From a virus: 64,000 bases of DNA. The notes under the pieces are model-generated. The model searched no databases, was not told the DNA's origin, and saw nothing but the letters and a program-made list of their open reading frames with translations. Where the stretch lies: IMG/VR virus record IMGVR_UViG_3300024346_009227, positions 32,001 to 96,000 of that record. One strand, given 5' to 3'. The position numbers were made by a program, and so were the translations under genes. Of this stretch, positions 27,348 to 48,335 are shown piece after piece (position 1 is the first letter of the stretch; each line of letters starts with the position of its first letter).

Positions 27348-27356
27348 AAATCATTC

Positions 27357-28712: not shown

Positions 28713-28714
28713 GT

Positions 28715-29866
28715 TTAATCCTCAAAGCCATGTGTATATAACTGCATGGTTTCATTAAATGGTTGATTTACTTCTGGAATAACTAACTCTATTGAATCAA
28801 AACAAACATCATTTGCATATATATTAAAATCAATACTATTAGTTATGGCAGAAGAAGCACCATAAGCTATTAAAGGCATATAATTCCAAGTTGCTTCAAC
28901 ATCTCTTTGTATAAACATCTCCATAGATGAACCATCTGGTATTGCATTGAATGTAGTTCCAAGACCAATTATAGTAATACTTAATGATTCATTAATAGAT
29001 GCATACTGATTGCTCAAATAAAGATTTAAACTTTCAAAGTGTGATGGGTTTATTATATCTCCAGATATATATGTATAAACAAACCCTGTTGTTAGTGCAG
29101 TATCATCTACCATCAAAAACAATTCTAAATTATTTTCAAAAAATGATTTTATATAAAGCTCTACACTATTTATTTGTTGGTCTATTGTTGATGAACGAAT
29201 ATTGAAATCAATAGATCCATCTGCATCAGTATATAAATACAAATTTTTTATGAATAAATCGGCTGATGATTCTACAAATGCTTTTAAATAAAGTTCTTTA
29301 TTGTCTTGATGTTCATTCCAATATTTTATAAATAAATTAATTGAATTTTGTGGAAATGATTTTAAATATAAATTTGTTTGTTCTTGCGTGTTGGCTTCTA
29401 AATACAAAGCTCTTGCACCAAAAAACATAGCTGTTGATTTTATATATAAAGAAACATTGTTGTCAAAATTTGATTTTAAAAATAAATTCCTAAAATTAAA
29501 AAATGTTGATGGTGAAGGAGTGGGTGCAGGAGTTGTTGTGGTAGTGGTAGTTGTAGTGGTAGTTGAGGGTTGTGGGGTTGTTGGTTCGCCTGTTGTAGTA
29601 GTAGTTGTTTCTAATGTGATCGTTGGTGCTGGTGCTGAACCTAAAAATGGTAACCATCCTGATAGTGGCACATTTAATGGGTCATCTGAGGTGTTATAGT
29701 AATAAACATCTGAATACTGTTGAATAACCCATTGAGATACTATAATGTCATAAAACAACACATAGCTTGTATCTAAAGAGTTTCTATATGTAACAACATT
29801 GTAGTATTCAAATGTTCCATTAAAATTACCTCCGCTACCAGCACCAGATATAATATAATTTGCCAT
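28715..29866 (-). CDS. Putative tail protein with a Thr-rich linker and L[YF][IL]K repeats
   Basis: First gene after the TMP. Poly-T/TP linker followed by about a dozen xL[YF][IL]K-like units. Confidence 0.65.
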   Translation of the reverse strand: MANYIISGAGSGGNFNGTFEYYNVVTYRNSLDTSYVLFYDIIVSQWVIQQYSDVYYYNTSDDPLNVPLSGWLPFLGSAPAPTITLETTTTTTGEPTTPQPSTTTTTTTTTTTPAPTPSPSTFFNFRNLFLKSNFDNNVSLYIKSTAMFFGARALYLEANTQEQTNLYLKSFPQNSINLFIKYWNEHQDNKELYLKAFVESSADLFIKNLYLYTDADGSIDFNIRSSTIDQQINSVELYIKSFFENNLELFLMVDDTALTTGFVYTYISGDIINPSHFESLNLYLSNQYASINESLSITIIGLGTTFNAIPDGSSMEMFIQRDVEATWNYMPLIAYGASSAITNSIDFNIYANDVCFDSIELVIPEVNQPFNETMQLYTHGFED

Positions 29867-29877: not shown

Positions 29878-32800
29878 CTATGAATTCATTTCATTTTTAA
29901 GTTGTTTACCTATCTGTGTAACTATCCATCCTTTTAGTTCTTCTGTCGCTTGTGTTACCGCTGTATATACACCTTCTGGATTAAAGTCAATATTTAAAGA
30001 AGCATTCAAATTGCCCATTACTTCTATATTTATTATTGATGGTATTTTATTAACTTGTGTTTGTAATGCTTCAGCATAAGCTTTAAATGTATCTATTTGT
30101 TCGCCAAAAGGCTTAAGGAATGTAGTTCCTAGTTTGTTTATTGCATCAGCTAATTGTGTAACGGAAGTCATATCTATTGCTGGAGTTGCGTTTTCTTGCT
30201 GATTTGGAACAAATGCCCCTCTTCTAGCATACATAACTCCACCATTAGACATATAACTAGTATTTCCATTTATATGTTTTAATAAATTTAAATTTTTAGA
30301 TGTTGATTCTCTATTTACCACAAACTCTCCTGGTGTGAGCATGGCAGGAACAGTGTCTGTACCTCTTGGTGTGAATCCACCATCTGCAAAATAGTTTACC
30401 AGACCACCAGAATTATAACCTTTTCTTTTTGACATTTTGTTGGCAGAATCAGCAAAACTTCCAACTCCAGCATTAAATCTAGACGAAGAAGCTAATATGT
30501 TTTGTGATCCTTCCTTATTAGCATTTGCCCCACTCTTAAATGAATCGCCACTTTGAACAAATTTGTTTCCAACTCCAGATAATTTTCCAGTTAATTCATT
30601 TATTCCAGATTCTATTGGATCTACTTTCTTGCCACGAATATTTCCAACACTACCACCAGTTCTAAACCCAGTAACTTCTTTGCCACTATTGATTGCATGT
30701 AACAGAGAATAATTTTTAGATGAAGCTTGTTTATTTACTACAAACTCACCTGGAGTCAACATAGCTGGAATAGTATCTACATTGCCACCAGTACTATATG
30801 AACCTAGATCCATTCCAAGAAAACTTAATTTTTGTCTTTGTGGTTGTTGTGGTTGTTCCTGTCTCTTTTTGGCAAATGCTGCCATTTGACGATAACCACT
30901 AGGCATTTGTTCTTGTGGTTGTTGTTGCATCTGTTGCTGTGGAGCTTGATTAAAGAAGCTTTCTGCATAATTACTTGATTGAAATGCTGGTTGAGCAACT
31001 TGAAGGTTTTGTGGTCGTTGTTGTGCCTGTTGTTGTGGCAACTTTCCTGCAAAATTACTTGGTCTTGGACCTGATTGTAATGCTGCTAATGCTGCTTGTT
31101 GTTTTTGTTGTTGTGATTGTTGCTGAGGATTCTGATTAACTTGAAGTTGTGATCTAAATCTATTCGCTCTTTGTCGTTCTATAGCATTTCTTGCTAGTGT
31201 TGATCTTTGTTGTCTAGCCCAATCATCTTGAAGTTCTCTTTGTTTTTTTTCTTCCGCTTCTTTTTTAAGTTTCGCCCTTAAATATTCATCTGTTGCAAAT
31301 GGGTTTGCTGGTGATAATGTTGTAAGTCCATTTTCCGCATAAATCAAACCACCTAAACTTGCATATGTACTACCAGATTCTTCTTCTTGTTGTTTTTTTT
31401 GTTCTTCTAGATATTCTTTGATTTGTTTTTTAAATTCATCAGAATTACTTTGTATTCCTGATTCATTTGCTTTTGCTGTTTTTAATGCGTTTACTTCTGC
31501 ACCAGTAGCAGAAATATTTCCAAAGGGATTGTTGCCACCACGCATTCTAGACTGAACATCTCCAAGCATACCCATTGCTGCTGATGTTACGCCTTCGCCA
31601 CCAGGCTTAGTTGGATCTTGAAAAGATAGTGCTTGTTGAGCAGAAACGCCACCAGACCCAGTAGAAAATCCAGCTTGCGTATTATCAAAAAGACTACCAG
31701 TTCCATCATTAAATCTAGTGTTAGAAAACATTTGGAATGCATTGTTTTCAGCTTGATTTTTTGCTGCTATTCTATTAGTTATGTCTGAAGTAGTAGCTTT
31801 TCCAATATTGTCAATATATCCTTCTTGATCAACAGTAAGAGATGTTTCTTCTTCACTGCCACTATAAGAACCTAAATTTGCTCTTCTTTTTAAGTATCCG
31901 CCATCATATAAATAACTTACTAATCCACCGCTTGCATATCCAAGTAATTTTTCCGTATTTGACTTAAAAAGATCTACGCCTTTATGCTGTACTTTTTCTT
32001 GAAGATAGTCTTTTCCAACATGTTTTGCTCCATGTAGAGCAGTCTCAAGTGATGGCTTCATTGCAAATTTTGAAATCGCAGATATCCCTGCTTTTGCAAG
32101 TCCAGTCATCCCCATAGCATTAAAGACCATATCTGTTGCAGCATTATTGCTGTTGTCTTCATTTTGTAAAAATTGATTCTGTCTACGAGAGAAAGTTTGA
32201 GTTGCCCTATTAGAAGTAGATTCTAAATCATCTTTCCTATCTTGCATGTAAGTATATTTATCTTTATTTTTATCATCAACTAAATATCTCGAATCTTCTT
32301 CGTATTTTTTTTGTCTATTCATTTTTTCATAAAATGCTTTTTTTCTTGCTTGTCCACCATCTTCTAAATAAACTATTCCACCAGTAGCTGAATATCCAAC
32401 ATCTTTACCACTATTTATTGCACTTAATAAGTCACCATGTTTAGCAGTAGCAGAGGCATTTATTACAAACTCACCTGGCGTAAGCATAGCTGGTACTGTA
32501 TCTGTACCTTTAGGCTTAAAGAACGAAGGATCAGGATTAGGACTATGGCTAGGAACACCACCAGATGAAAGATAGCTTACCATTCCACCAGATGACATTT
32601 TTCTAGCTTGTCTTTGTCGTTCTATTTGTGCTGCTGCTTCTTCTCTAGTTATTTCACCCCTATTTAATCGACTTTCAACACTTAGTTCTCCATATTGTCC
32701 TTCAAATAATTGTTGCTCTTTGGTTGCTCTAGGAAGTCTAGCTGCAAGAGCACTCTGTTCTTTTTGTTCTTTTATAATTGCAGCTTGAAATTCATTTGGT

Positions 32801-35800
32801 TCACCTTTAACCACATTTTTATTTTCTTCTGGTGCGATAGCTTTTGTTTCACCTTTCATTTGCTTCAATCTATTTTTCATTGCCTCTCTAGTTTTAGCAT
32901 TTTCAATATTTGCAACATCTAAATTTCTTTTATAATCAATTTTTCTTTGTTTTTTACCATCAACATCTTCTTCTACAACTACTGCTTTTGATGAAATAGT
33001 TGCATATCCTGGAGAATTACTAACAAGATTTAAAAAATCTTCTGTCGTAAAAAGACCTGGACCGTCTGCTGGAAATGTAAAAGAGCTATTAGGACTTCCT
33101 AATGTTGGTCTATCTCCAGCTAATTGTTTTAATCCATCATTTGTATATGCTTGGTCTGCAAGTTCATTTCCATTAATGCTTGGAGCTACCGCAGCAAATT
33201 TTGCTAATGCAGCCATAGGATTTGAAAATGCAGTAGTAATTACATCAGTAGCTGCACTAAGTGTAGAAGAAAGACTTTTATAAGGAGCAGCTATTCTCAA
33301 TGCGGTATTTTTGGCAGACATAGAAACTTGACCTTTTCCAGTTGCTGCCTTTATAGTTGCATAAGCACCATCTTCACCTTCTGCAAAATCAATTCCAGAG
33401 AATGGTCTAACAATTTTTTGTGCTTTTCCTTCTTGTTTTTCGGAAAGCTTATCTAATAGATTAAAGTCTTTATTTCTTCCAATAGCACCTTCTAAGCTCT
33501 TTCTGCTTATACCACCAACATTTGCTGCTGCTGCATTAAGAACGCTCAACGCATTTATTTTTCCTTCTTCTATCGCCCTTACAACTAAAGGTATAGCATC
33601 TGGTCCAGCTTGTTTTACTTTTGCATCAACAAAACCCTTAGTGTCTTTTATGTTTGAGTATTGATCAATAAAGTCAAGAAGACCCTTACCACTTATTGCT
33701 AAAGATCTTGTGCTTGCCTGTTGTTTAAAGAAAGAACCAACAATTTCTTTTTGGAATGGAAGTATAAGTTTAGGATTATCAAAGTCTTCTTTTGCCAAAC
33801 TTCCTTTTTGTCCACTGTATAAATTATTGTATTCTTTTAAGCCTAAAGGTATTAATTGATTTGGATCTTTACCAATTTCAGCAAATTCTTTTTTGTTTAA
33901 TTCTTCGCCTTGATTTTTAGCAAAAATACCTTTTAGCTTTACCATTTTGCCAAGTATAGCACTAGCTTGCACTTCTCTTCTTAAACCTATTTGTGCTAAT
34001 CTTCCTGCATCGCCCTGTCTCTTTAAGAAAAGCTCGTCTTCTTTTCCCATATCTGTAGCGACAAACTTCTCTCCAGTTCCTTCTTTTATTTGAGTAAGAT
34101 AAGCCTTAGAGTCAACATAGCTCTTATCTATTTCTGGTCTATTTTGACCATAAGCATTTCTTAACTTTTCATTAGATGTTAATCCAATTTGGTTATAGCT
34201 TGTTCTTCTTAGCTTTAATATTTCTAATTCTGCTTTTTTCTTAGATTCTAATTCTTTATTCCCTCTTGCTGCAAGAACCTCATTCTCTGCCATTCTTATC
34301 TGCGTATCTATGGGCGTTGTGCCTTCTTCGTTTGCAATGTTGGCAACTATATTTTCTTGTTTCTTTTCTGAAACAATGTCTTTCTTTTGTGCTTTTAAAT
34401 TTGCTATTGTTGCAATATATTGTGGTATTTTAGCATCTATATCAGCATCTATACCTTTATTAGATTCAGCACCAATATTTTTAAAGTAATCTGGATTTAT
34501 TTGAAATTGATCTAAACTTTCTATTTTTTCTGGTATGTTATATTTTTTATTCCAATCAATTATTTTCTTTTCTTTTAAATAATTTTCTATTAATTCTTTT
34601 CTTGTTGGTATTTTCTTTTTTGATTCTTCTTCTAAAAGATTTACATCGGTGTCGGTATGTTTATCCCCATAATTCTTAATGCCTTTCCATTTTTCTCCAC
34701 CGCTTTTCCAAGCAAGAGCTTTTTGTTTTTCTGGACCATTCCAAAAATAAGTATCATAAAAATCACCTTGTGATCCACTAAAAGCATTTGATTTTTGTGC
34801 ATCTCCATTGTGAAAAGTTGTAAATAAACCGCCCCTTACATTTTTTGAAAGCTTTGGATAATCATCTTCCTTAATTGAATTTGTAGTTAAATCAGAAAAG
34901 TGATCTATAAAAGTTCCAGTAATCCTAGCATCTTTATATGCTCGATGTCCTCTTAGATAATTATCTAAATCAAATACTCTTGCAACCTTTCTTTGTAATG
35001 GTCTAATAAGGCCAAATGCAGAAGTAACTTGTTGAAGTCCAGCACCAATCGTTCTACGCCATGTTGTATCAGATGTAGCATCATTATCAAATTTTGCTTT
35101 TGTATGATCATCAACTGCATCTGGCCCATAATTTAACATTAAAGGTATAAGTTTTTCTTTAACTTTTTTTGCTTTATCTTTTTCTAAGTTTTCTGTAGAT
35201 AAGCCTCCTTTATCACTAATTTCTTTTTTAATGCTTTCATATTCTTTGTTAAGTGTTGTTTTTGCTTCTTGTGACGAACCTTCTTTTATTTGAATTTGTT
35301 TAAAGTTTGAAAAAATATTTCCAAAATCTTGAAGTGCTTCAAATCCACCATTTTCTTCAATTGTTTTTTTAACATTAGGATTTTGAGAAAGTTGTCCACT
35401 AGATAAAGACGAAATAACTTCAGATAATATAGACAGAGATGTTTTTTCTCTATCTTCTGGTTTTACTATTGCAGAAGGAACATTGCTTAATGATGATTTT
35501 ACAAGTGAGTCGTATTTTCCTTTTATGTTGCTTTTAATTGCTGCTGTTTTTTGTTCATTCGTTGGTCCTACTTGATTCCATATATTCATCACTTCTTCTG
35601 ATGCTTTTATTCTTTTATCTAATACTTCTCCACCTTCTGCTAAATATGATGTTTTTCCACTATTGATAGACTTTAACAAAGGCAAGTTTTGTTGTGCTGC
35701 ACTTCTATTTACTACAAATTCTCCTGGTGTTAGCATTGCTGGAACAGTATCAGTTCCTCTTGGAGAAAATGCTTGACCGCCAATTGCAAATCCAATTGCT

Positions 35801-38800
35801 TGTGCAGGATTAACATTGGCGTTAACTGGAGCAATACCTTGTTGTTGTGCTGCTAATCCACTAATAGATGCAGACAATCTATTAATATTAGCTGTAGCAG
35901 CATCTGCTGCTGCTGTAAGTTTTACTCCAATTCCTTGATTTAATTCACTAACTGCTGTAAGACTAGATTCAAATTTTTCTGCATTTATTCCTTGGTCCTC
36001 TGCTTTATTTGCAATTTTAACCCCAAGAGAATTTGATCCTCCAAGTTCTTGTTCGGATTTACTTACTTTTTCTCTTGCATCTTTATTTGTTTGTTGCGTA
36101 ACATTTTGTACGGCTTTTGTTATTGCATCTTGTATATTTCCACCTTCTGAAACTGTAGCTATTGCTTCTGATTGAACAGATTTGCTTTCTTTTCCTGATA
36201 ATCCTATTTTTGATAATATTTCATTTAATGTATCTGATTTTGCAGCAATTTCTTTTGCTGCTTCTGGACCTTGTTTATTAGAAAATGAACTTCCTATTGA
36301 TTTTTTAAATTCATCACCCCTTAAAGATTCTCCAACATTTGAATATTTTTTATCTGCTTCTTTTTTTTCTTCTCTTGCTTTTATTAAACTTGATATTTTT
36401 CCTTTGTTTGCTGTAACATCTTTTAGGTTTTCATCAGTTACTCCAGCTTCTCTAAGAAAACCACTTTTTTCTTGAACATCTTTTATTCTTGCAGACTTTT
36501 GAACTTCCCTATTTTTTTCATCTTGAACTTGACTCTTTTCCATGCCAGCAATAAATTTATCTAGGTTTGAATAAAATGTAGTGTTCTGTTTTGTCAACTG
36601 AGAAAAATAATCAGTCTGTAAACTTCTTTGATTTCCAATTAACTCTTGATTTGCTTTTACTTGTTCGTCATATACTTTAGCTAATTTTCCAACCAACATA
36701 TCTTCTTCTGGTTTCTTTTTTCCTAAACCAGTAGTATTACGCACAATATTGTCCGCAATATCTTTTCCAACTGGACCAAAACTATCTAAAAATGCAAAAA
36801 GTGCCTTGTTTTGTTCAGAACTAAAATTACTTACATTTCCACCTTGAGCTTGTGCTTGTTTAAGTAATCCTTGTCCTTGAACTCTATCTCTTAATATTTT
36901 TTGTCTTTCTTTTGGATCTGCCGTTAAAAACTCTCTTCCTCTTTGAGTTTCATTATCTCTTTCTTGTCTTACTTGACCAAGCTTGCCTTCCAAAATAGCA
37001 AGATTGTTTGATTGATCTGCCAAGTTCTTTAATGACTCTTGCAAATTTGAAGCTTCTGATTTTAATTTAACTAACTCAGATGCTGCACCTCTAAATGCAG
37101 CCCCACCACCTTCTGCACCAGAAGCATTCTGTACTTTTGGTTCTAACTCCCTAATTCTTTCTTGTGTTCTTTTTAGATTATCTCCGATTACTCTAGAGTC
37201 CTGTGCTTCTGCTCCTTTAGTTCCAGTAAGCCTTTCTTGATTTGTTCTAAAGCCCTGCATTTGTCTATCTACTGAAATCAAGTTCCCTGCTTGTGATGGC
37301 AAACCAGCATTTGTAGCAACAGTCTCTGCTGTAAACTTATCTCTCTGTAGTTTTGCACCTTCTAAGTTTTTAAAAGATTCGCCAATTTGTTTTTGTCTTT
37401 GAGCTAAATTTTCTAAACCACTAATATATTGATTACTTGCATTTTCTAATCTTTGACTTATATCTTTAGCTGCATTTAAAAATGGGTCTTTTATATTACC
37501 AAGTAGTTTTTCTGCAACCTTAGATACATCGCCACCAGCTTCAGCAAGCAGCTTCGTGTATTCTTGTCCAGATACATTTCCAGCAACAGAACTAACAACT
37601 CTTTCTGCTCCAGCCCCACTAATACCTTGAGCACTTAAAGCTTCTCTTAAACCAGAGGCTATTTGTATGGCTATGTCCTGACCACCAACAGGATCTTCTA
37701 TTGCACCAGCAAGTAATGACGGCAATGCTTGTGAGGCTGCATTAATTGCATTTCCTTGAGTCTTAAATTCATTGCCATAAGTTCCAAGTGAATCAGAAAG
37801 TTTAGAAACGGCAGAATTAAAAGAATTAAAGTCTGGAGTTGATTTTTGATCAAACTGATTAGAAATTCCAGTTACTTTTGTTGATCCAATACCGCCACTA
37901 AAAAATGACTCATTTGTGCTTAACCTATTAGAGAAACTTTCTACCGAATTAGCAGCAGCAACAACTGCTTCTGATAATAATGCCATAGAATTTATAGATC
38001 TTTGATTTACAGTTACTGCTTCTTTTTGAGTTTTTTCTAATTGTGCAGCTTTAAAAGAATCTTTCATTACTTTTACAATTTCTTTTTTAACATCATCAAA
38101 GCTTACATTTCTTGCATTAGCAATTTTTTGTATTTGTGCATTATTAAATCCACCACCGCCACTAGTTAATTTGGTATCTAATGATGCTGCAAAATCTTTA
38201 TAGTCTAATGTTCCAGCATTTCCACCAGCCTGTCTTACTGCACTAGAACCAAGTTGTTCGGCTTGTTTATTTAAAATATTCGTAAGTGGAACTATTTGTG
38301 CAGCACCAGCTTCTTTTTGACTTTTTGAATTTAATTCGTTGAATTTTTTAACATCAAATCCACCAAAACCGCCACCAGTAATTCCAGATATTAGTCTGTC
38401 AAAACCATTTTTCTCTCCACCAGCTTCAACGAATGCTTTTCCAGCGTTTGCTTCAGTAATAATTTTTTGATTTGCTGCAATTGATTCGGCAATAGTATCA
38501 TCAAAAGTTCTTAACCCAGTATTTAATTTATCAAATGTTCCTTGCAATCCTGTTAGTGCAGCACCTAACTTTACTTCTCTTATTTGTGCCTCTGCTTCTT
38601 TAGTGCCATCAGCATAACCTTTTATTAATCCAACAAATGCACCTAAAGCACCGCCTACAAGAGTACCTACTGGCCCAAGTGCCGAAAAAGCGGTAGCAGT
38701 AGTAGCAGCATATGTTCCAGCTTTTTCAATAGCACCAGCAAATTGAAGTGTGGACCTATAAGCTTCTTGCTGTGCTTTATCTTCAACAACTACTCCTTGT

Positions 38801-41800
38801 TCATTTGCTTTTGCAAGAGAAGAAACTTCTGGTGCTCCTGCTCTCATTCCAGAAGCAAGTAAAGATCCACCAACAGCAGCAGTTGTTATTCTATTGGCGT
38901 AACCAGATGCTCTATCTTGTTTAAACTGTCTTTCTCCCTCTGCACCAGCTTCAAAATCAGTTCGTTTTGAACCTACAAGTCTTTGCCCAAAATCTTTTAC
39001 CTTACCTTGGAATGTTAAATCGCCACTTTCTTTATAATCTCCACCTTTAATTAATTTTGATCCTAAAGACTTATCTCCTGTTAGTTCTCCTTGTTTATTA
39101 AAAACTGCCCCTCTTTTTCCTTGAGCAAACTGCTTAGTGTATTGATCAGTCATAGACTGGATTTGCAATTCGCTAACAGGTTTTACTTCTTTTTGTGCTT
39201 TTGCTCTAAGTTGTTTTTCTGTTGCTGCTCTATATTCATTAACTATTCCACTTCTTATATCTTCTCTTTCGCTTTTTCTAGGGGCTTTACCATCATTTTG
39301 TTTAGCGTATTCTTTTTCTCTTTGTTTTGAAATTTGTTTTATTGAATCAGGTGTAGTTATTGGCTTTGTTTGTCCAATTGGCCTTCCTTTTTCATTTACA
39401 ATCTCACCCTTTGCATTTACTTGGAATGATCTAGTGGCTTTTTCTCCTGATGCTTTTGCTGCTGCTTTTGCCGTTTCGGCTTTTTGTATATTTGCTTCTG
39501 CATCTTTTATAGATTGTTCTGTTTTTAAAATTTCATTTTGAACATTTAATTGTTTAGTTCCAACAGCAGTAATGCTATTTTCTATTGCCACTCTATTTTG
39601 AGCATTTGTATTTCTATCATTAAGAAGTTTTTGATAATCTTGATTTAACTTTAAAATTTGTGCATCTTCTTTTGATGTGTCTACTGCCGTTCTTGCCTTA
39701 GTATCTCTTGCGTTTGTTGCTGTAGTCAAAGCACTTTCAGCTTTTGTTATTTTTGCATCTATTGCTTTTGATTTTAATGGTTTTTCAGCTTCCAATTTTT
39801 CTGCTTTCGCCTTATCGATTTCTTCCTGTTCTTTTTTTGTGTTAGGAACTTTGTTGTCTCTTGCAGTAGTAGCTTGCGTAAGAGCATCTTCTGCTCTCAT
39901 TATTTTTGTGTCTATGTTTTTTGTTTTTAATGGCTTACTAGCTTTTGCTAATTCGTCTTTTGCTTTATCAATTTCTTCTTGTTCTTTTTTTGTGTTAGGT
40001 CCAGCAGCAGTTTTATCTGCCATCTGTTTTGTCAATACATCTCTTTGTCTTTTTGCTTCTGCTATTTGTGCATTCACAACTCTAACTGATTCACCAGCAT
40101 CTAATTTAGATTTTTTTCTTGCTTCTAGAACAGAAATTCTTCCGGTAATATTTCCAACTTTTGCAGTTTCACTTTTTAAGTTTACTGGCTGTTGAGATTT
40201 TAATCTTTTTGCTTCTTCTGCTTCTGCAAGTCTTTGACTCGCTGCATCAATTTTTGCTTGCTTCGCTTCTTGCATGTCCTTCTTTTTTTGCTTTAAATCA
40301 TCGACTTTTTGTTTTGTCGAAACAACTCTTTTATTTTCTTGAGTTAAATCTACTGGTTGAGCTTCTTTTGTGATTTTTGCTTGTTCTGCTGCTGCAATTC
40401 TTTGATCTGCTGCATCTATTTTTGCTTGTCTAGCCTCTTCCATGTCTTTCTTTTTATCTTTTAATTCATTTACTTTTGTTTGTGCAGATCCAACCCTTGT
40501 ATTTTCTTTAGTTAAATCTTGTCCTGCTGCTGCTTTTGCATCTCTAGCAGCTACTATTGCTGTACCCTTTGCCCTTAATTCTAATTCAGCAGTATATGAA
40601 GCATCTGCTGCATCTGTATTCTTCTGAAGTGCTTCCGCTAAACTAGTTGCTTCTTTACCTAAAGTAGATAGTGTTTTACCAAAACCCTTTAGTTCTGTAT
40701 TAAAAACACCAATATTTGATTTTTCTGCCGATATGTCTTGATCTGCTCTAGCAACATTTCCAATTGCTTGATTTGATGTTTGATTTTGAACTTTTATTTC
40801 ACTTACAATTCTTGTGGCTTCTGCTTTTGCATCTTTTTTTGATATTTCTGGATCTGACTCCATTATTTGATCAACTAATGTTAAAAGTATTTTCTTTAAA
40901 TTGTTTGGGCTATTTAAAAATGTATCACTAACTATACTATTACCAACTTCACCACCTTTTTTAAATTTTGCAAAACTATTCATTTGATGAAGTTTATTAG
41001 CACCAATTTTCTTTGCTTCGCTAGGGCTATATACATATTCACCTGGCGTGAGTAATGCAGGAACTTTACCACCAGATGCAAATTTGTGAGCATTAGCTAA
41101 ATTATCAATGCCTATGCTATTAACTGAAGACTTTTTAATTACAAAAGAACCTTCGTCTAAATCCATTGGAACTGTGTCAGAATTGCCAGTTCCTGGTACT
41201 AATCCACCAGAAGCAAAACCCCTAGCTTTTTTTCTTTCTTCCATCATTTCTTTTGTGATTGCTACTGATTTTCCTAAAGTTGGATCTAATGCTAATGCAG
41301 GAAGTGGCTTGTATATATCTTCACTATATTTTTTAGATTCTTTGGTCTTTTTAGATGGTTTCCTTACCATTATTGGTGGGGCATCTCCTTTGCCTATGCT
41401 TTTACTAAATTTTCTTTCACGACTACGAGATTCCCTATTTGTCTCTTCTATTGATGCCTTTTTTATACCAAAAATATCATTTCTTTTTTGTTCGAGATAT
41501 TCGCCCCAAGATCTTTCTGGTGCAATTCTCCGAATATTTGTATTTATTGGTGTGATACCATCATTCATTAAAGACAATTTTCTTAGTGCTTCCTCTTTAT
41601 CTCTAGCGGGAATACTTCCTTTTTTACCCTGTTCGTCTTGATAAGAAAATCTAGCCAAACCTTTATTTTTTTCATCTTCTGATTTTCTTGATTTTTCATA
41701 CATCATACCGCCAACTGCTCCAGCACCAAATCCTAAAGTGCCACCAATAAATGCCCCCGGAATACCACCAAGAAGAGCACCACCAACAGCACCAGTAATA

Positions 41801-44703
41801 CCTCCAGCAATAGCACCAGCGGGTCCAGCCAAAATTCCTTTAGCATCTCTTTCTTGTCTTTCTGATTCTTCTATTGCAAGACTGTTACCTCTTTTTGGAG
41901 GTCTAGATGTATTAATGTCACCTGTGTCTGTCTCATTCATATTCCAATATCTTCTAAGTTCTTTCGCTCTTTCTTTTGCTTGATCTCTTCTGTCTTGTCT
42001 TTCTTGTAGTTTTTGTTGTGAGGCTTTTTTGGCAGCAACAAGCTTAAGAGATATAACAAAGTATCCCATCTGCCTAATCTTTTGACGCATTTCATCTTCT
42101 GTTGCAGCATCAACACTATCACGAACAATATTCCCTTTTGTATCTTTAGCAACAAACTTACCACTAGCAAACTTTTGTCTAACTACATCTCCACCATAAG
42201 CAAATTTTCTTTTTGCTTTAGCAGCTTTCTGTCTATCGGTATATGCAGAAGAAGCATTCATTGTTTTAGATAGTTCTTCTTTTTCTCTAAATTGACTAGC
42301 ATTTCTAACTGCTTCAAAACTATCAAATCTATTTGGTCTGGTGAATGTTTCTGGATTTGTACCTTTCCATTGACTTCTTGCTTCGTCTTTAGTTGGAGCA
42401 TCGCCAAAGATAGACCTAAACATTTGGTCTTCTGACTGAGCATTATTTTTTGGCGGTGGTGGAGGTGAATTTGCAGTCTTTGGTCCACTTTGTGATCTTG
42501 CTTTTTTAAGATCACTCCGATCTTTTAAACGCTGAAAGGCAGCATTTACTTGTGCCATATTTTCGGGCAGACCGCCCCTATCTGAATGATGAATTAAAGC
42601 TGCTCTTCTAAATGCACTTGTTAGTTCTGGACCTTGCGGTATATAACCTTTAGTAAATCCAAGTATTTCTTCTGGATAAAGACCTTTAGGAAATGGTTTT
42701 GATCTTGCTTCATTTCCTTCCATGAATCTTTGACGATAGATTGGTCCACCAAACGCTTTTTTAGTAGGATCTTTTCCACCTATAGCTGTATTTATATCTT
42801 CAGCCTGACCTTCAGTTGCTCTTTTTCCTGTTCCATTATATGCTATCGCTACTTTAGATCTTATTAGCAGACCAGCTAATTTATTATCAGTAAACATTGG
42901 TCTACCATATTTATCTTGACCTTTACCTTTAAATAAATTAGTTAGTTTATCTGAATCTTGATAATTAGAAGCAGCGTATTTTTCAGTTATAGCCTTTGCC
43001 TGTTGACCTTTTTCTCTTTCTTTTTTTGTTCCTTTATTTAATTCATAAGCATCAACACCTTCTAGCCTTGTGCTTGTTCTAAATCTTGCTCTTGTTGGAA
43101 CAACGCCTACATTTAAACTATCTCCATCAACTGTTTTGTTGTATTTTACACTGCTAACATCTCCACCCTTTAAATACTTGCTTCTTCTGACTTGATTTCT
43201 AGGTACAACCATCTCACCTGGCTCAAGCAAAGCTGGCACTTTATCTCCAGTGCCACTTCCTGGCACTATACCCCCTGTTCTCATCCTAAGAAAACCGCCA
43301 TCTGCTTTTTTATTTGTTCTTGCAGACGAACTATCTGCACCAGCACCCTTTACAAAACCTGTGGCAAAAGAGCCAATACTTTGACCAATTTTTACAGCAG
43401 CGAGAGCAGTAAATAATGGGAGTAAACCTTTAAGTGAATTGATTAATGACAAGACAGAAGTGGCAGCACCAATGAATGTATCAGCCAAACTTCTAAAGCC
43501 AGGGCTATTAACAATACTTCTACCAACCTCAAAAAAGCTTTCCTTCAACTTCTGTAGTTTTACAGCAAGAGCATCCTGTGCCTGACCAGCATTAACAGCC
43601 AAAGACACACTACCAGCTTGAGCTACCCCTAATGCCTTCTGTGCAGTAGCAAATTCTTGAATAAGTGGGATAACCTTACTGATCTGCCTATAACCACCTA
43701 ATTGCTCAACAATGGCACTAAATCGGGGGTCTGTTGATCTTAATTCTGAAAGTCCAGAGGACAACCTTTTAATTGCTTCATATGGTCCAACAAACTGCTG
43801 TTCTAAGCCAACATCTCCTAAAGCCCTAGCTTCATCTGCGGTATATCTAAGATTTATACCAATTTCTTTTAGAGCATTAGCCGTATCATTTCTTTGTATT
43901 CGTGTAAATATAGTTCTTAAGCCAGTACCAATACTTTCGGCACTTTCTCTTGTCGTTTGTCGTACTGATGTAAATAAGGCTATAAGCTCATTTAAATTAC
44001 CACCAGCAGCTTTAAAAGCACCCCCTGTCTTTCTAATCGCCTCAATAATATCTGATGCTTCAACAGCAAACTCACCCGCTACAGCATTAACAGAACCTAA
44101 AGCTGCACCAAGATCTCTTGCTTCAACTTTAAACTGCTTCATAATAGCAATAGCACCTTCAGTCGTATCTTTGAGGTTATCAAAGTTTGGTGCTAAAGCA
44201 GCTTGTGCCATTGCTTCTAAGGCATCTTTAGTTTCAGACAGAGTTAAGTTAGCTTGTTTTAAAACTACTGCTACGCCAATTAAATCTTTACTGGAAACAC
44301 CTAAATTTTTAGATAAGTTTGTTACTTGATCACCTACAGCAGCAACATCTTGTACTGTATCTGAAGAAACTTGTCTTAACCTAACCATTTCTCTATCAAA
44401 ATCTACGGCAGCAGAAACAGCTTGTTTCATTGTGTTAGTAAAAGCAATGATTGAACCAGCAGTAACAGCGAATGCAGCAAATCTTTTAGCAGCAAAGCCA
44501 GCTTGCCTACCAAAATTTTCTATAGAATTAGTAACTTCAGAAAGCTGAGTTTTTAATGGAGTAAGAGAAGCAAATGTTGCAGAATTTGTTCCTATTTTTA
44601 AACTGTTCACACTTCCTAATGTGCTATTTATTTGATTGGCTGCTGCTTTTAAAGCACCACTATTTACAGCAACATTCAAATTGGCAGTCAAATTAAAAGC
44701 CAT
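29878..44703 (-). CDS. Giant multi-domain tape measure protein (4941 aa)
   Basis: N-terminal TP901-type TMP domain (AVDFDREMVRLRQVS...ESAESIGTGLRTIFTRI), long Ala/Lys/Gln coiled-coil regions, seven D.VPA.L.PGE-type motifs, and position after the tail tube and chaperone genes. GAGGT SD. Confidence 0.92.
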   Translation of the reverse strand: MAFNLTANLNVAVNSGALKAAANQINSTLGSVNSLKIGTNSATFASLTPLKTQLSEVTNSIENFGRQAGFAAKRFAAFAVTAGSIIAFTNTMKQAVSAAVDFDREMVRLRQVSSDTVQDVAAVGDQVTNLSKNLGVSSKDLIGVAVVLKQANLTLSETKDALEAMAQAALAPNFDNLKDTTEGAIAIMKQFKVEARDLGAALGSVNAVAGEFAVEASDIIEAIRKTGGAFKAAGGNLNELIALFTSVRQTTRESAESIGTGLRTIFTRIQRNDTANALKEIGINLRYTADEARALGDVGLEQQFVGPYEAIKRLSSGLSELRSTDPRFSAIVEQLGGYRQISKVIPLIQEFATAQKALGVAQAGSVSLAVNAGQAQDALAVKLQKLKESFFEVGRSIVNSPGFRSLADTFIGAATSVLSLINSLKGLLPLFTALAAVKIGQSIGSFATGFVKGAGADSSSARTNKKADGGFLRMRTGGIVPGSGTGDKVPALLEPGEMVVPRNQVRRSKYLKGGDVSSVKYNKTVDGDSLNVGVVPTRARFRTSTRLEGVDAYELNKGTKKEREKGQQAKAITEKYAASNYQDSDKLTNLFKGKGQDKYGRPMFTDNKLAGLLIRSKVAIAYNGTGKRATEGQAEDINTAIGGKDPTKKAFGGPIYRQRFMEGNEARSKPFPKGLYPEEILGFTKGYIPQGPELTSAFRRAALIHHSDRGGLPENMAQVNAAFQRLKDRSDLKKARSQSGPKTANSPPPPPKNNAQSEDQMFRSIFGDAPTKDEARSQWKGTNPETFTRPNRFDSFEAVRNASQFREKEELSKTMNASSAYTDRQKAAKAKRKFAYGGDVVRQKFASGKFVAKDTKGNIVRDSVDAATEDEMRQKIRQMGYFVISLKLVAAKKASQQKLQERQDRRDQAKERAKELRRYWNMNETDTGDINTSRPPKRGNSLAIEESERQERDAKGILAGPAGAIAGGITGAVGGALLGGIPGAFIGGTLGFGAGAVGGMMYEKSRKSEDEKNKGLARFSYQDEQGKKGSIPARDKEEALRKLSLMNDGITPINTNIRRIAPERSWGEYLEQKRNDIFGIKKASIEETNRESRSRERKFSKSIGKGDAPPIMVRKPSKKTKESKKYSEDIYKPLPALALDPTLGKSVAITKEMMEERKKARGFASGGLVPGTGNSDTVPMDLDEGSFVIKKSSVNSIGIDNLANAHKFASGGKVPALLTPGEYVYSPSEAKKIGANKLHQMNSFAKFKKGGEVGNSIVSDTFLNSPNNLKKILLTLVDQIMESDPEISKKDAKAEATRIVSEIKVQNQTSNQAIGNVARADQDISAEKSNIGVFNTELKGFGKTLSTLGKEATSLAEALQKNTDAADASYTAELELRAKGTAIVAARDAKAAAGQDLTKENTRVGSAQTKVNELKDKKKDMEEARQAKIDAADQRIAAAEQAKITKEAQPVDLTQENKRVVSTKQKVDDLKQKKKDMQEAKQAKIDAASQRLAEAEEAKRLKSQQPVNLKSETAKVGNITGRISVLEARKKSKLDAGESVRVVNAQIAEAKRQRDVLTKQMADKTAAGPNTKKEQEEIDKAKDELAKASKPLKTKNIDTKIMRAEDALTQATTARDNKVPNTKKEQEEIDKAKAEKLEAEKPLKSKAIDAKITKAESALTTATNARDTKARTAVDTSKEDAQILKLNQDYQKLLNDRNTNAQNRVAIENSITAVGTKQLNVQNEILKTEQSIKDAEANIQKAETAKAAAKASGEKATRSFQVNAKGEIVNEKGRPIGQTKPITTPDSIKQISKQREKEYAKQNDGKAPRKSEREDIRSGIVNEYRAATEKQLRAKAQKEVKPVSELQIQSMTDQYTKQFAQGKRGAVFNKQGELTGDKSLGSKLIKGGDYKESGDLTFQGKVKDFGQRLVGSKRTDFEAGAEGERQFKQDRASGYANRITTAAVGGSLLASGMRAGAPEVSSLAKANEQGVVVEDKAQQEAYRSTLQFAGAIEKAGTYAATTATAFSALGPVGTLVGGALGAFVGLIKGYADGTKEAEAQIREVKLGAALTGLQGTFDKLNTGLRTFDDTIAESIAANQKIITEANAGKAFVEAGGEKNGFDRLISGITGGGFGGFDVKKFNELNSKSQKEAGAAQIVPLTNILNKQAEQLGSSAVRQAGGNAGTLDYKDFAASLDTKLTSGGGGFNNAQIQKIANARNVSFDDVKKEIVKVMKDSFKAAQLEKTQKEAVTVNQRSINSMALLSEAVVAAANSVESFSNRLSTNESFFSGGIGSTKVTGISNQFDQKSTPDFNSFNSAVSKLSDSLGTYGNEFKTQGNAINAASQALPSLLAGAIEDPVGGQDIAIQIASGLREALSAQGISGAGAERVVSSVAGNVSGQEYTKLLAEAGGDVSKVAEKLLGNIKDPFLNAAKDISQRLENASNQYISGLENLAQRQKQIGESFKNLEGAKLQRDKFTAETVATNAGLPSQAGNLISVDRQMQGFRTNQERLTGTKGAEAQDSRVIGDNLKRTQERIRELEPKVQNASGAEGGGAAFRGAASELVKLKSEASNLQESLKNLADQSNNLAILEGKLGQVRQERDNETQRGREFLTADPKERQKILRDRVQGQGLLKQAQAQGGNVSNFSSEQNKALFAFLDSFGPVGKDIADNIVRNTTGLGKKKPEEDMLVGKLAKVYDEQVKANQELIGNQRSLQTDYFSQLTKQNTTFYSNLDKFIAGMEKSQVQDEKNREVQKSARIKDVQEKSGFLREAGVTDENLKDVTANKGKISSLIKAREEKKEADKKYSNVGESLRGDEFKKSIGSSFSNKQGPEAAKEIAAKSDTLNEILSKIGLSGKESKSVQSEAIATVSEGGNIQDAITKAVQNVTQQTNKDAREKVSKSEQELGGSNSLGVKIANKAEDQGINAEKFESSLTAVSELNQGIGVKLTAAADAATANINRLSASISGLAAQQQGIAPVNANVNPAQAIGFAIGGQAFSPRGTDTVPAMLTPGEFVVNRSAAQQNLPLLKSINSGKTSYLAEGGEVLDKRIKASEEVMNIWNQVGPTNEQKTAAIKSNIKGKYDSLVKSSLSNVPSAIVKPEDREKTSLSILSEVISSLSSGQLSQNPNVKKTIEENGGFEALQDFGNIFSNFKQIQIKEGSSQEAKTTLNKEYESIKKEISDKGGLSTENLEKDKAKKVKEKLIPLMLNYGPDAVDDHTKAKFDNDATSDTTWRRTIGAGLQQVTSAFGLIRPLQRKVARVFDLDNYLRGHRAYKDARITGTFIDHFSDLTTNSIKEDDYPKLSKNVRGGLFTTFHNGDAQKSNAFSGSQGDFYDTYFWNGPEKQKALAWKSGGEKWKGIKNYGDKHTDTDVNLLEEESKKKIPTRKELIENYLKEKKIIDWNKKYNIPEKIESLDQFQINPDYFKNIGAESNKGIDADIDAKIPQYIATIANLKAQKKDIVSEKKQENIVANIANEEGTTPIDTQIRMAENEVLAARGNKELESKKKAELEILKLRRTSYNQIGLTSNEKLRNAYGQNRPEIDKSYVDSKAYLTQIKEGTGEKFVATDMGKEDELFLKRQGDAGRLAQIGLRREVQASAILGKMVKLKGIFAKNQGEELNKKEFAEIGKDPNQLIPLGLKEYNNLYSGQKGSLAKEDFDNPKLILPFQKEIVGSFFKQQASTRSLAISGKGLLDFIDQYSNIKDTKGFVDAKVKQAGPDAIPLVVRAIEEGKINALSVLNAAAANVGGISRKSLEGAIGRNKDFNLLDKLSEKQEGKAQKIVRPFSGIDFAEGEDGAYATIKAATGKGQVSMSAKNTALRIAAPYKSLSSTLSAATDVITTAFSNPMAALAKFAAVAPSINGNELADQAYTNDGLKQLAGDRPTLGSPNSSFTFPADGPGLFTTEDFLNLVSNSPGYATISSKAVVVEEDVDGKKQRKIDYKRNLDVANIENAKTREAMKNRLKQMKGETKAIAPEENKNVVKGEPNEFQAAIIKEQKEQSALAARLPRATKEQQLFEGQYGELSVESRLNRGEITREEAAAQIERQRQARKMSSGGMVSYLSSGGVPSHSPNPDPSFFKPKGTDTVPAMLTPGEFVINASATAKHGDLLSAINSGKDVGYSATGGIVYLEDGGQARKKAFYEKMNRQKKYEEDSRYLVDDKNKDKYTYMQDRKDDLESTSNRATQTFSRRQNQFLQNEDNSNNAATDMVFNAMGMTGLAKAGISAISKFAMKPSLETALHGAKHVGKDYLQEKVQHKGVDLFKSNTEKLLGYASGGLVSYLYDGGYLKRRANLGSYSGSEEETSLTVDQEGYIDNIGKATTSDITNRIAAKNQAENNAFQMFSNTRFNDGTGSLFDNTQAGFSTGSGGVSAQQALSFQDPTKPGGEGVTSAAMGMLGDVQSRMRGGNNPFGNISATGAEVNALKTAKANESGIQSNSDEFKKQIKEYLEEQKKQQEEESGSTYASLGGLIYAENGLTTLSPANPFATDEYLRAKLKKEAEEKKQRELQDDWARQQRSTLARNAIERQRANRFRSQLQVNQNPQQQSQQQKQQAALAALQSGPRPSNFAGKLPQQQAQQRPQNLQVAQPAFQSSNYAESFFNQAPQQQMQQQPQEQMPSGYRQMAAFAKKRQEQPQQPQRQKLSFLGMDLGSYSTGGNVDTIPAMLTPGEFVVNKQASSKNYSLLHAINSGKEVTGFRTGGSVGNIRGKKVDPIESGINELTGKLSGVGNKFVQSGDSFKSGANANKEGSQNILASSSRFNAGVGSFADSANKMSKRKGYNSGGLVNYFADGGFTPRGTDTVPAMLTPGEFVVNRESTSKNLNLLKHINGNTSYMSNGGVMYARRGAFVPNQQENATPAIDMTSVTQLADAINKLGTTFLKPFGEQIDTFKAYAEALQTQVNKIPSIINIEVMGNLNASLNIDFNPEGVYTAVTQATEELKGWIVTQIGKQLKNEMNS

Positions 44704-44714
44704 TTTTATACCTC

Positions 44715-44767
44715 AATAAAAAAGGGCAGAGCATAAGCGTAGTTACTTCTACGATTAAACCCTGCCC
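44715..44767 (-). terminator. Long imperfect hairpin plus U6 directly upstream of the TMP ribosome-binding site
   Basis: mRNA GGGCAGGGUUUAAUCGUAG-AAGUAA-CUACGCUUAUGCUCUGCCC-UUUUUU. Confidence 0.65.
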
Positions 44768-44787
44768 ATCTATGCGATACTGTCCGT

Positions 44788-45672
44788 TTAGTTCTTGACT
44801 TCTTCAGCAGGAACTTTAGCTGCTTCAACAACAATTTCTGGTGCTGCCGTTGTTTTGACAGTCTCAACCTTTTCTTGGATTGGTTTACCTTCGTCATCAA
44901 GGAACGGAGAGAATTCAACAACATAATCTCCTTCCTCATTAACTCGATTACCATGAATATCAATGAGTTCACCAGCCTCATTAATATACCTACCATCCTT
45001 ATTGACTAGCCTACCCTCAGAATCAACCCTTCGGCCTGTCTTATCAACTAAATGCAACTCTTCATCCACAAAGTTATATTTAGCTAAAAACTGGTTCTCA
45101 GGGAGCTTCTTTTCATAATCTGGATCAAGATTATAAAGCAACATAGCAAGACTTCCTGCTGCCTGTCCAGTTGCTGGATCGTCATCTCTATTTAAGTAAT
45201 CTTCATAATTACTAAAATATGTTTTCCCTGTCTCTGAATACACCGTACATGAACTAACCCAGTAATTGAATTGGGCATTATCTGCTTGACCTTCAGCAGT
45301 ATTATTATCTAGGGATGATCGCTCAGAGGTTAAAGCCCTAAGTTCCGCACGATCTTTCCTCATTTCAAGAGCTAAGTCCTTAGCCTGATTGAGTTTAATA
45401 CCGCCAGACTTAATCTTTCTTTCTGCCCCATTAATTTTTTCCAATAATTTACGATATTCAGCTTCTTTGTTATCATCCCAAAGATTCTGCTCTCGCATAA
45501 CATTATTGACTTTGCCACGAAGAATTGCACCAGATTCAACAGCATCTCGAAATGCCTTATTGTAAATCTTTTGCCCTTCTTGCCTCTGTTTAACATTAGG
45601 TCGAACAACACAAAGTTCAACTTCTTTGCTATCCAAGGTTACCTTAAACTGCTTCTTATTTGTGACACTCAT
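44788..45672 (-). CDS. Putative tail assembly chaperone
   Basis: Immediately upstream of the TMP. Helical, with C-terminal 7-aa [VI][DN]xxG repeats. Confidence 0.6.
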   Translation of the reverse strand: MSVTNKKQFKVTLDSKEVELCVVRPNVKQRQEGQKIYNKAFRDAVESGAILRGKVNNVMREQNLWDDNKEAEYRKLLEKINGAERKIKSGGIKLNQAKDLALEMRKDRAELRALTSERSSLDNNTAEGQADNAQFNYWVSSCTVYSETGKTYFSNYEDYLNRDDDPATGQAAGSLAMLLYNLDPDYEKKLPENQFLAKYNFVDEELHLVDKTGRRVDSEGRLVNKDGRYINEAGELIDIHGNRVNEEGDYVVEFSPFLDDEGKPIQEKVETVKTTAAPEIVVEAAKVPAEEVKN

Positions 45673-45674
45673 AA

Positions 45675-46040
45675 CTAATCCTCCTTTTGCTTAAGAATAT
45701 TCTGGTGTCTGTTCCAATAAACAATATACTGCATTATCTCATTTTCGCAAGATCTAATTTGATGATTACCATTGTTCAAAACATTTGTTCTACATAAATC
45801 CCATAGTTCCCTCCACTTTCTTTGTTTGTCAGTCAAATCCGCTTCACTTATCCCATATCCCCAAATCTCTCCGAAGTTTTGTTCAAAAGAAGAAAGAGCA
45901 CCAATAAACGATGTTCTTAGCTTAGTAGTTATAATTTTTTGCAGTCTTGCTTTTGATTCAGTCTCGTACTTTTTCCTGTTTCTATCTTCATCTTTTTTAG
46001 AAAAATTAGAAGCATCTTCCATTTGCGAATAGATATCCAT
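45675..46040 (-). CDS. Hypothetical protein in the tail chaperone region
   Basis: ORF with a GGAGGT SD upstream of ATG 46040. Confidence 0.7.
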   Translation of the reverse strand: MDIYSQMEDASNFSKKDEDRNRKKYETESKARLQKIITTKLRTSFIGALSSFEQNFGEIWGYGISEADLTDKQRKWRELWDLCRTNVLNNGNHQIRSCENEIMQYIVYWNRHQNILKQKED

Positions 46041-46041
46041 T

Positions 46042-47088: not shown

Positions 47089-47099
47089 CCTATGTTCCT

Positions 47100-47132: not shown

Positions 47133-47152
47133 ACATATTTATAAATCAACCA

Positions 47153-48286: not shown

Positions 48287-48335
48287 TTTATAAATCTCCC
48301 ATATGAATTTCTATCCGAAAATCAACCCTCATTTA

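Follow-up and report, generated by a model that had tools for sequence, protein, structure and literature searches.

Why should a phage tape measure protein (TMP) carry more than twenty strings in which an aromatic residue stands shortly before a pair of glycines, and what do these strings separate? The question is raised by a 64,000-nucleotide (nt) stretch of viral DNA, hereafter the window, which comprises bases 32001-96000 of the 116,974-bp contig IMGVR_UViG_3300024346_009227 (estimated to be 78% complete) and in which a single open reading frame (ORF) at 29878-44703 on the minus strand encodes a protein of 4,941 amino acids (aa), denoted P0001. A preliminary description of this DNA had taken the product for a TMP built as a polyprotein, with the motif acting both as a protease or sorting signal and as a recombination joint, such that the protein would be a magazine of cassettes delivered at injection. 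Our analysis points to a conserved module of about 60 aa, flanked by the motifs and present in seven copies, and we consider it fairly probable that this repeated module is a joint between exchangeable cassettes of a giant TMP, with cleavage of some modules suggested by analogy. The evidence supports the earlier reading as far as cassettes and joints are concerned, and leaves its protease and magazine part undecided.

The module and its distribution

The matches of P0001 to Pfam PhageMin_Tail (PF10145; aa 125-337, E 4.3e-24, score 85.9 bits, cut-off 33.2) and to PHROG 28 and PHROG 167 (E 1.8e-23 and 5.7e-14, respectively), both annotated as 'tail length tape measure protein', identify it at the level of sequence as the TMP of an uncultured long-tailed phage, in agreement with the preliminary description.

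The pattern [FYW]-x(2,3)-GG occurs 23 times in P0001, on 22 distinct GG sites, compared to a mean of 4.2 (sd 2.0) in 2,000 shuffled versions of the protein, none of which reaches 23; aromatic residues make up 5.9% of the chain. The GG pairs themselves are in excess (59, compared to 37.2 +/- 5.5 in the shuffles, a single one of which reaches 59), and the aromatic residue occupies position -3 before 13 of the 59 pairs and position -4 before 10, each of the remaining offsets from -1 to -8 being represented 1-3 times. All the motifs initially listed are present within ~10 nt of the places assigned to them, for example, YLKGG at aa 510 (position 43176), KAFGG at aa 651-655 (42753), FAYGG at aa 834 (42204), FASGG at aa 1163 and 1208, FKKGG at aa 1247, FAIGG at aa 2972, YLAEGG at aa 3020 and YMSNGG at aa 4817 (30255). 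Most of them conform to the aromatic-x2/3-GG definition, the exception being KAFGG, a variant in which the aromatic residue immediately precedes the glycines.

Eighteen of the 22 motif sites fall within seven copies of the ~60-aa module or within three orphan double-GG strings, the four outliers being located at aa 230, 2091, 2267 and 3332. The module consists of an aromatic-xx-GG string, often doubled, a core DTVPAMLTPGEFV, a short helix LLxxINxG and a second aromatic-xx-GG string. The doubled flank frequently takes the form GG-h-h-x-Y-h-xx-GG, which explains why the motifs had been seen to come in close pairs. Comparison of 85 diverse copies of the module shows no variation at the core residues D, P, A, L, G and E and very little in either GG pair. 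We built a hidden Markov model (HMM) of the module from 394 copies in relatives of P0001 and, separately, a profile from the seven copies of P0001 itself. The HMM detects the seven copies listed below and gives sub-threshold matches on two of the orphan strings (aa 831-859 and 4240-4277). From the N-terminus to the C-terminus, the modules, orphan strings and variant joint are:

43138..43326 (-): module 1, aa 460-522, with YLKGG as the right flank; HMM domain E 1.1e-13; junction cluster at aa ~519 with 60 relatives
42739..42753 (-): KAFGG variant joint, aa 651-655; the point where identity to P0004 resumes; junction cluster at aa 644-669 with 11 relatives
42139..42204 (-): orphan joint FAYGG...FASGK, aa 834-855; sub-threshold HMM match; junction cluster at aa 829-837 with 3 relatives
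41062..41244 (-): module 2, aa 1154-1214, degenerate, lacking the core Glu; HMM domain E 1.4e-11
40933..41067 (-): module 3, aa 1213-1257, degenerate, lacking the core Asp and having a FASGG in common with module 2; HMM domain E 3.9e-11
35605..35805 (-): module 4, aa 2967-3033, FAIGG ... YLAEGG; HMM domain E 2.2e-23; junction cluster at aa 3025-3028 with 8 relatives
32317..32628 (-): module 5, aa 4026-4129, bracketed by double-GG strings; HMM domain E 6e-27; junction cluster at aa 4126-4138 with 3 relatives
31894..31938 (-): orphan double-GG string YASGG..YLYDGG, aa 4256-4270, from the motif scan; break in P0003
31318..31365 (-): orphan string YASLGG..YAENG, aa 4447-4462, from the motif scan
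30622..30816 (-): module 6, aa 4630-4694; HMM domain E 3.4e-21
30184..30438 (-): module 7, aa 4756-4840, ending 101 aa from the C-terminus; HMM domain E 2.3e-25

P0001 belongs, by sequence similarity, to a large family of TMPs of 2.7-7.9 thousand residues. A word-based search retrieved 120 giant related proteins (2,825-7,574 aa), mostly containing PF10145, and among the 121 proteins including P0001, two modules were found in 3, three in 11, four in 28, five in 25, six in 22, seven in 28 and eight in 4. The search of 1.84 billion representative proteins with the seven-copy profile yielded 23,043 matches at E <= 1e-3, 6,201 at E <= 1e-10 and 1,086 at E <= 1e-30, with the largest number of copies, 11 stretches, in a 7,794-aa protein. 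Among the named phages, tblastn produced matches in 130 records (Gordonia 90, Nodularia 9, Burkholderia 6, Ralstonia 5, Mycobacterium 4, and others), many Gordonia phages having two module places each; for the best 40 of the 130, the feature under the match is annotated as 'tape measure' in 37 and as 'endolysin' in 1, the other 2 being unannotated records. By these criteria, the module is widespread and specific to TMPs.

The placement of the module in the chain is highly regular. In a set of 251 giant TMPs, the first module begins between aa 400 and 700 in 231, and in 225 no more than 250 aa separate the end of the last one from the C-terminus. The number of modules increases with the length of the TMP (Spearman 0.59), and of the 4,427 occurrences of [FYWLM]xxGG in giant TMPs, 2,845 fall inside modules +/-20 aa, regions that account for 13.6% of the residues. 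An experimental model is available in the cultured Nodularia phage vB_NpeS-2AV2 (KU230356.1, 8983-19197), whose 3,404-aa TMP contains adjacent modules at aa 983-1043 and 1078-1129 and whose tail is listed at 795 nm (Table 1 of PMC6293099).

Mosaicism at the modules and the cassettes between them

When the relatives are aligned with P0001 residue by residue, similarity is lost or regained at the modules. P0003 shows identity to P0001 through YASGGL (aa 4261) and no relation beyond it; P0004 is near-identical through module 1, unrelated from the GG of the right flank (YLKGG) to KAFGG, and identical again at KAFGGPIYRQRF; P0019 and P0011 break immediately after module 1. With breaks exactly at YLKGG, KAFGG and YASGG, the proposal that the motif is a recombination joint, with segments swapped among relatives, is upheld. 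The distribution of segments among the 119 giant relatives is similarly uneven: at 50% or greater coverage, aa 1-459 is present in 111, compared to 7 for the nuclease segment, 10 for aa 656-833, 4 for aa 3034-4025 and 2 for aa 4271-4629, which holds the Gln-rich block. The degree of conservation also varies from segment to segment within one protein. P0004 is 95% identical to P0001 over aa 1-459 and 97% over aa 656-833, and lacks the nuclease between them; P0011 is 80% identical over aa 1-459, 94% over aa 656-833 and 38% over aa 1549-2966; and P0017, P0019 and P0020 combine 90% identity in the N-terminus with 38-41% in the centre.

The blastp comparison of P0001 with the 119 giant relatives, in which we kept high-scoring segment pairs (HSPs) of at least 300 aa and at least 30% identity, put 84 of the 176 internal HSP ends within 15 aa of a module, with 13.5% expected by chance. 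Among the junctions represented in at least two relatives, 6 of 14 are no more than 12 aa away from a motif GG (12% under the null, p 0.004), and three more well-supported clusters are located at module edges or at KAFGG (aa 1147-1164, 4126-4138 and 644-669). Several properties of the same data weigh against this interpretation. Sixty of the 84 module-adjacent ends fall at a single junction, aa ~500-539, and the rows that make up a junction are mutually related proteins, not independent events. If 163 ends are clustered into 39 junctions, the number at this distance from a motif GG is 8 (12% under the null, p 0.09). Four well-supported junctions, at aa 955, 1518, 1549 and 1626, are away from the motifs, three of them in the tandem-repeat region. 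Together with the residue-level breaks, these counts show that segments are swapped, acquired or dropped among related phages at the modules and their GG flanks, and, judging by the alignments, the conserved motif marks the border between shared and variable segments in the family of P0001.

Two other counts were set aside. A cluster at aa 557-626, with 28 relatives, might have represented a break inside the nuclease; the two of the 28 that were aligned by hand (P0019 and P0011) lose similarity right after module 1, and on the basis of these two, we read the cluster as over-extension of gapped alignments. A junction count from HSPs of at least 100 aa was discarded as circular, because matches of module to module enter into it.

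As to how the junctions arise, homologous recombination between module copies is unsupported: the DNA identity between the copies in P0001 is only 62-84% when 37 nt are compared and 63-73% for 109 nt, and long exact repeats are absent. Given this modest identity, the junctions may instead reflect selection for joints at flexible linkers. We also considered the possibility that the internal modules are former C-termini of whole TMPs that became fused, and dropped it since the similarity between the units barely exceeds the module, with the exception of the first ~520 aa. This N-terminal part (PhageMin_Tail, a hydrophobic stretch at aa 410-437 and module 1) looks like the core of a small TMP, to which further segments would have been appended.

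The motifs had been proposed to fall at the edges of recognisable domains, and this is the case for three segments, namely, an SNase-like one between YLKGG and KAFGG, a J-like one between KAFGG and FAYGG, and a Gln-rich one between YASLGG and YSTGG:

42778..43149 (-): SNase-like endonuclease cassette, aa 519-642; PHROG 452, E 3.1e-7
42487..42702 (-): J-domain-like fold, aa ~668-739, with H-S-D replacing H-P-D; AlphaFold2 model and structural matches
30802..31236 (-): Gln-rich block, aa 4490-4634, 41 Q in 145 aa; composition

The nuclease assignment comes from PHROG 452. Searches of the cassette against Pfam SNase (PF00565) and against PDB sequences gave no match at E <= 1; PF00565 is present, as a precomputed annotation, in the distant relative P0078, and homologues of the nuclease directly follow module 1 in six distant relatives. 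In other relatives, this position is occupied by ART-PolyVal (aa 534-735 in P0052 and P0054) or ADPrib_exo_Tox (aa 588-734 in P0069), that is, by ADP-ribosyltransferase domains embedded in TMPs right after module 1. The slot after module 1 thus appears, from these domain matches, to hold alternative enzymes, SNase-like in P0001 and ADP-ribosyltransferases in relatives.

Segment-wise structure prediction was only partly informative. The AlphaFold2 model of aa 505-860, from a 15-row alignment of full-length relatives, has a mean predicted local distance difference test score (pLDDT) of 47.4, with the nuclease part below 50, and module 7, modelled with 85 diverse copies, is mostly coil with one helix (model residues 49-64) and a mean pLDDT of 60.8; the J-like block stands out as moderately confident (pLDDT 62-87). 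The top VIA-align matches of the J-like model are Tim14-Tim16 (Z 8.7, root-mean-square deviation 2.3 over 62 aa), xRbj (8.6), a DnaJ-like protein (8.2) and HscB (7.4), and 19 of the best 50 structural matches have J-type titles, a Z near 8 being moderate evidence at most for helical models. At the sequence level, the segment reads H-H-S-D at aa 705-708 in place of the canonical HPD, and Pfam DnaJ does not match it at E <= 1; phmmer of aa 523-1153 against PDB gave weak matches, the DnaJ 2 J-domain at E 0.31 and SlyB at E 0.25. We assign aa ~668-739, with moderate confidence and on the strength of the model, to a J-domain-like fold. An H-S-D in place of H-P-D is a trait shared with J-like proteins lacking Hsp70-stimulating activity.

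The search for shorter proteins containing aa 515-860 gave 2 proteins only, both TMPs, and the scan of viral contigs with aa 505-860 gave 1 locus. For the 992-aa segment at aa 3034-4025, the best ESM Atlas score is 0.77, with no named family.

Possible cleavage and structural roles, and known systems

The comparison that bears most directly on the function of the module is with phage lambda. The 394-copy HMM matches lambda gpH at aa 729-797 (domain E 2.5e-9), and the seven-copy profile, run against solved structures, gives a weak match to the corresponding region (PDB 8iyk_H, aa 728-785, E 0.14) and matches gp16 of mycobacteriophage Douge, a protein of 1,699 aa, twice (aa 962-1026 and 1411-1460, E 2.3e-6). 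No Pfam model covers gpH 729-797. TIGR01541 covers gpH 472-813 (E 1e-134) and PF09718 (Tape_meas_lam_C) matches gpH 627-701; P0001 has no match to the former at E <= 0.1 or to the latter at E <= 1. Hence the earlier remark that a single such motif is common near the C-terminus of ordinary TMPs holds for lambda, where gpH carries the element once.

In both gpH and P0001, the module follows a hydrophobic stretch (in P0001, that before module 1), and the C-terminal geometry is comparable, the gpH module ending 56 aa from the C-terminus and module 7 being followed by a 101-aa tail. The two proteins differ in that gpH has one module and P0001 has seven, P0001 having some six times the length and its modules being separated by enzyme-like cassettes, and in that TIGR01541 and Tape_meas_lam_C match gpH alone. 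The corresponding C-terminal feature of P0001 is:

29881..30183 (-): C-terminal tail, aa 4841-4941, presumed to be tip-proximal by comparison with lambda, T5 and Douge; 98% identity in P0004 and 39% in P0003

During maturation, gpH is converted to gpH* and gpHC, with a C-terminal piece of ~14 kDa removed in a hydrophobic, Gly-rich region; the cleavage has been known since the 1970s, and its site, catalyst and purpose are still described as unknown (PMC12617516). By mass, the 14-kDa fragment would start at about aa 710-725, within a Gly-rich run directly upstream of the module flank at aa 733-737. The lambda tail structure from cryo-electron microscopy (cryo-EM) resolves gpH at the extreme C-terminus alone (818-842), within the lumen of the tip (PMC10721106), and that of Douge likewise resolves gp16 at 1658-1699, within the tail tip. 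The module is outside the resolved TMP density in both phages because cryo-EM resolves only the extreme C-terminus. In T5, pb2 matures to pb2* and pb2C, the latter taken to be the last 92 residues (PMC12617516). If so, pb2C starts two residues before a GG-h-h-Y string, a resemblance noted by eye that we treat as a lead only.

By analogy with these cases and with the Tal protein of TP901-1, the repeated module can be given the following role. The aromatic-xx-GG strings would be glycine hinges on either side of the ~60-aa TMP-specific module, which ordinary TMPs such as gpH appear to have once, ~60-150 aa before the C-terminus, and which the giants reiterate, seven times in P0001. We infer that the module is a conserved flexible joint that would allow folded or foldable cassettes to be threaded into a rod-like ruler; the enzymes near the N-terminus would then be the last to exit the tail, immediately before the DNA. 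Following the precedents of gpH* and gpHC, pb2* and pb2C, and Tal, some modules could be cut during maturation. That at least some are maturation cleavage sites is, in our estimate, quite possible, although we propose it tentatively. A stronger version, which we regard as rather unlikely, has each module directing a cut, either in cis or by an unrecognised tail-assembly protease of which the gpH-cleaving activity of lambda would be the prototype. The ruler would first measure a tail of ~0.75 µm and then become six to eight products inside the tube, ejected in fixed order before the DNA; cassette exchange at the modules would amount to polymorphic effector delivery. The products would include the nuclease, the J-like segment as a co-chaperone mimic, membrane-inserting pieces and a gpHC-like plug of the tip.

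Several observations count against the cleavage component, as they do against the earlier designation of the motif as a protease or sorting signal, a step proposed by analogy. The contig, which is an estimated 78% complete and comes from a very divergent phage, has no match at E <= 1 to PF14464 (Prok-JAB), PF00877 (NLPC_P60), PF02902 (C48), PF00770 (C5, adenain), PF18818 (MPTase-PolyVal) or PF04586 (S78), so that a cognate protease gene was not found among these six families. P0001 itself contains no HExxH and no Cys. The module, with its invariant Asp, Pro, Ala, Leu, Gly and Glu, is conserved far beyond the needs of a cleavage site, an excess that suggests a function in binding or structure; the prediction for the monomeric module is mostly coil. 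In T5 pb2, the best match in the module search (E 0.024) is not significant and the best stretch lies elsewhere. Cleavage of multi-module TMPs is argued by analogy, and the adjacency of the lambda cut to the module is approximate. Lambda gpK, annotated as a C40 peptidase, was considered as a model for the cutting enzyme and rejected, the contig having neither a JAB nor an NlpC/P60 domain; gpK is reported as not detected in virions (PMC10721106).

The alternative that follows from these points is that the module is purely structural or binding and is never cut, the giant TMP staying intact. It might keep three (or six) TMP chains in register as a clamp or hinge, tether them to the tube wall or an assembly chaperone, or belong to a trans-envelope conduit that arises once the TMP has been ejected, and the mosaicism would then reflect the survival of recombinants that are joined at flexible, conserved joints. 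Besides the invariance of the six core residues over 85 diverse copies and the empty protease search of the contig, this alternative would account for the stereotyped positions of the module in essentially all giant TMPs, for a monomer that has no stable predicted fold and could fold on a partner, and for the location of the module in unresolved density inside the tube or tip of lambda and Douge. The prediction of a module trimer (3 copies, 85-row alignment) scored 0.00, with controls not run, and is evidence neither way. Against a purely structural module, the sole known event in this region of gpH is a cleavage; contact with the tail tip is impossible for all internal copies at once; a chain of 4,941 aa would remain attached to enzyme cassettes whose place of action must be the cytoplasm; and HExxH is found in 90 of 252 giant TMPs, which suggests processing in the family. 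On balance, we give this alternative a minority chance.

It is improbable, in our view, that aromatic-xx-GG is the site of a dedicated GG-specific protease of the adenain or pS273R kind, or a sorting signal, with the TMP acting mainly as an effector magazine. The excess of the motif, its location at cassette edges and the enzyme cassettes in P0001 and its relatives would fit such a scheme. However, no protease of clan CE or of the other families searched was detected, and the motif is part of a larger conserved module as opposed to a bare site. The module HMM, run on the 194 contig ORFs of at least 80 aa, matched none of the 193 other than the TMP, so the module is not a virion-wide processing code. 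Moreover, the Pfam search shows no recognisable cargo domain over most of the chain, the long segment aa 1258-2966, which bears the tandem repeats and a hydrophobic stretch, being one such part, and the effector-type content of P0001 comes to one enzyme-like domain (that matching PHROG 452) and one J-like fold; the picture of a magazine was therefore overstated. Least probable of all is that the motif excess is a by-product of internal duplication with no present function. Such an origin would agree with the self-comparison of P0001, in which the likeness between copies is limited to the ~60-aa module, but the copies are old, by their DNA identity, and yet have kept the invariant residues, and the module is conserved in the 23,043 representative proteins and in lambda. 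We accordingly prefer the joint between exchangeable cassettes, with cleavage as its less certain component.

The HExxH strings of the giant TMPs include two recurrent contexts, Y-H-E-x-T-H-Q-L (n=22) and H-E-[ST]-F-H-D-I-Q (n=14), located for the most part in the interval from module 1 to the following module. The Pfam search of the HExxH regions of P0080 and P0092 gave no named family.

The closest concepts for serial exchangeable enzyme cassettes are polyvalent proteins and polymorphic toxins, VENN being an example of a named pre-toxin motif. Polyvalent proteins are virion-delivered chains of several conflict-type enzyme domains, for which processing by an embedded zincin-like peptidase has been proposed (Iyer et al. 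2017, PMC5512222); the terms 'tape measure' and 'tape-measure' have 0 occurrences in that paper. The relatives of P0001 resemble them in carrying ART-PolyVal, a Pfam domain named after the class, and in the HExxH strings of 90 of the 252, whereas P0001 lacks both HExxH and a match to MPTase-PolyVal, is built on a ruler scaffold and has its domains parted by a dedicated repeated module. Polymorphic toxins (Zhang et al. 2012, PMC3482391) likewise have a short conserved motif at which variable enzymatic cassettes recombine and which is sometimes the point of toxin release; they differ in having one C-terminal cassette, compared to several serial ones on a TMP scaffold. In the Tal proteins of TP901-1 and Tuc2009, a Gly-rich motif that precedes the catalytic domain is proteolytically processed, and a Gly-to-Arg substitution blocks the processing (PMC11409707). 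Tal resembles P0001 as a tail protein with a Gly-rich motif at the joint that precedes a catalytic domain; it is not a TMP, and its motif is a Gly run with Asn/Ser, with no aromatic residue and no DTVPAMLTPGEFV core. The Sle1-type effectors of actinobacterial contractile injection systems (PMC13277306) are TMP-related modular proteins inside a tail-like tube, with exchangeable domains ('reconfigurable'); in contrast to P0001, they are contractile-injection cargo with a single C-terminal functional domain, and the abstract of that report describes no repeated junction module.

Precedents exist for TMPs with a single cut (lambda, T5) and for TMPs that contain a lysin. The preliminary description knew of no account of the arrangement seen here, and our literature search, with subscription journals mostly outside its reach, found none of this module or of a multi-module TMP. 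The module, located beside the lambda cut region and present in tens of thousands of TMPs, is a concrete target for mutation and for mapping by mass spectrometry. Cleavage of the modules, if it occurs, would give long-tailed phages a general route to pre-load host-directed enzymes such as nucleases and ADP-ribosyltransferases and deliver them via the tail, and the concept of polyvalent proteins would extend to the ruler protein. Even uncut, the module would be a marker for annotating TMPs in very divergent phages and for locating the points of cassette exchange.

Gene neighbourhood and other features of the chain

The structural genes around the TMP gene are poorly recognisable. Among the 10 ORFs that surround it (17901-29866 and 44706-49306, minus strand), including one that encodes a 1,573-aa protein, the PHROG search gave no match at E <= 1e-3 and no match exceeded the Pfam cut-off, and megablast against named phages gave zero matches. 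From these comparisons, we consider the phage to be very divergent, and the structural block around the TMP gene unusually so. Directly upstream of the TMP gene, at 44706-45672 on the minus strand, two overlapping ORFs (294 aa and 96 aa) recall the G/GT pair of tail chaperones, the second frame being, by coordinates, +1/-2 relative to the first.

The composition of P0001 is unusual in that, besides having zero Cys, the protein has just 16 His in 4,941 aa. The other features of the chain are:

43693..44331 (-): PhageMin_Tail domain, aa 125-337; PF10145, E 4.3e-24
41692..41817 (-): glycine-zipper hydrophobic segment, aa 963-1004; Pfam Gly-zipper_Omp E 0.056 (below the cut-off), SlyB-like E 0.25, hydropathy peak at 963-990
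39704..40490 (-): two tandem duplications with units of ~150 nt and 168 nt, 2 copies each; 71% identity at 40155-40490 and 74% at 39704-39999

A further hydrophobic stretch is located at aa 2005-2030. Both tandem duplications sit inside a long stretch rich in Lys, Glu and Ala, and they resemble a means of lengthening the ruler.

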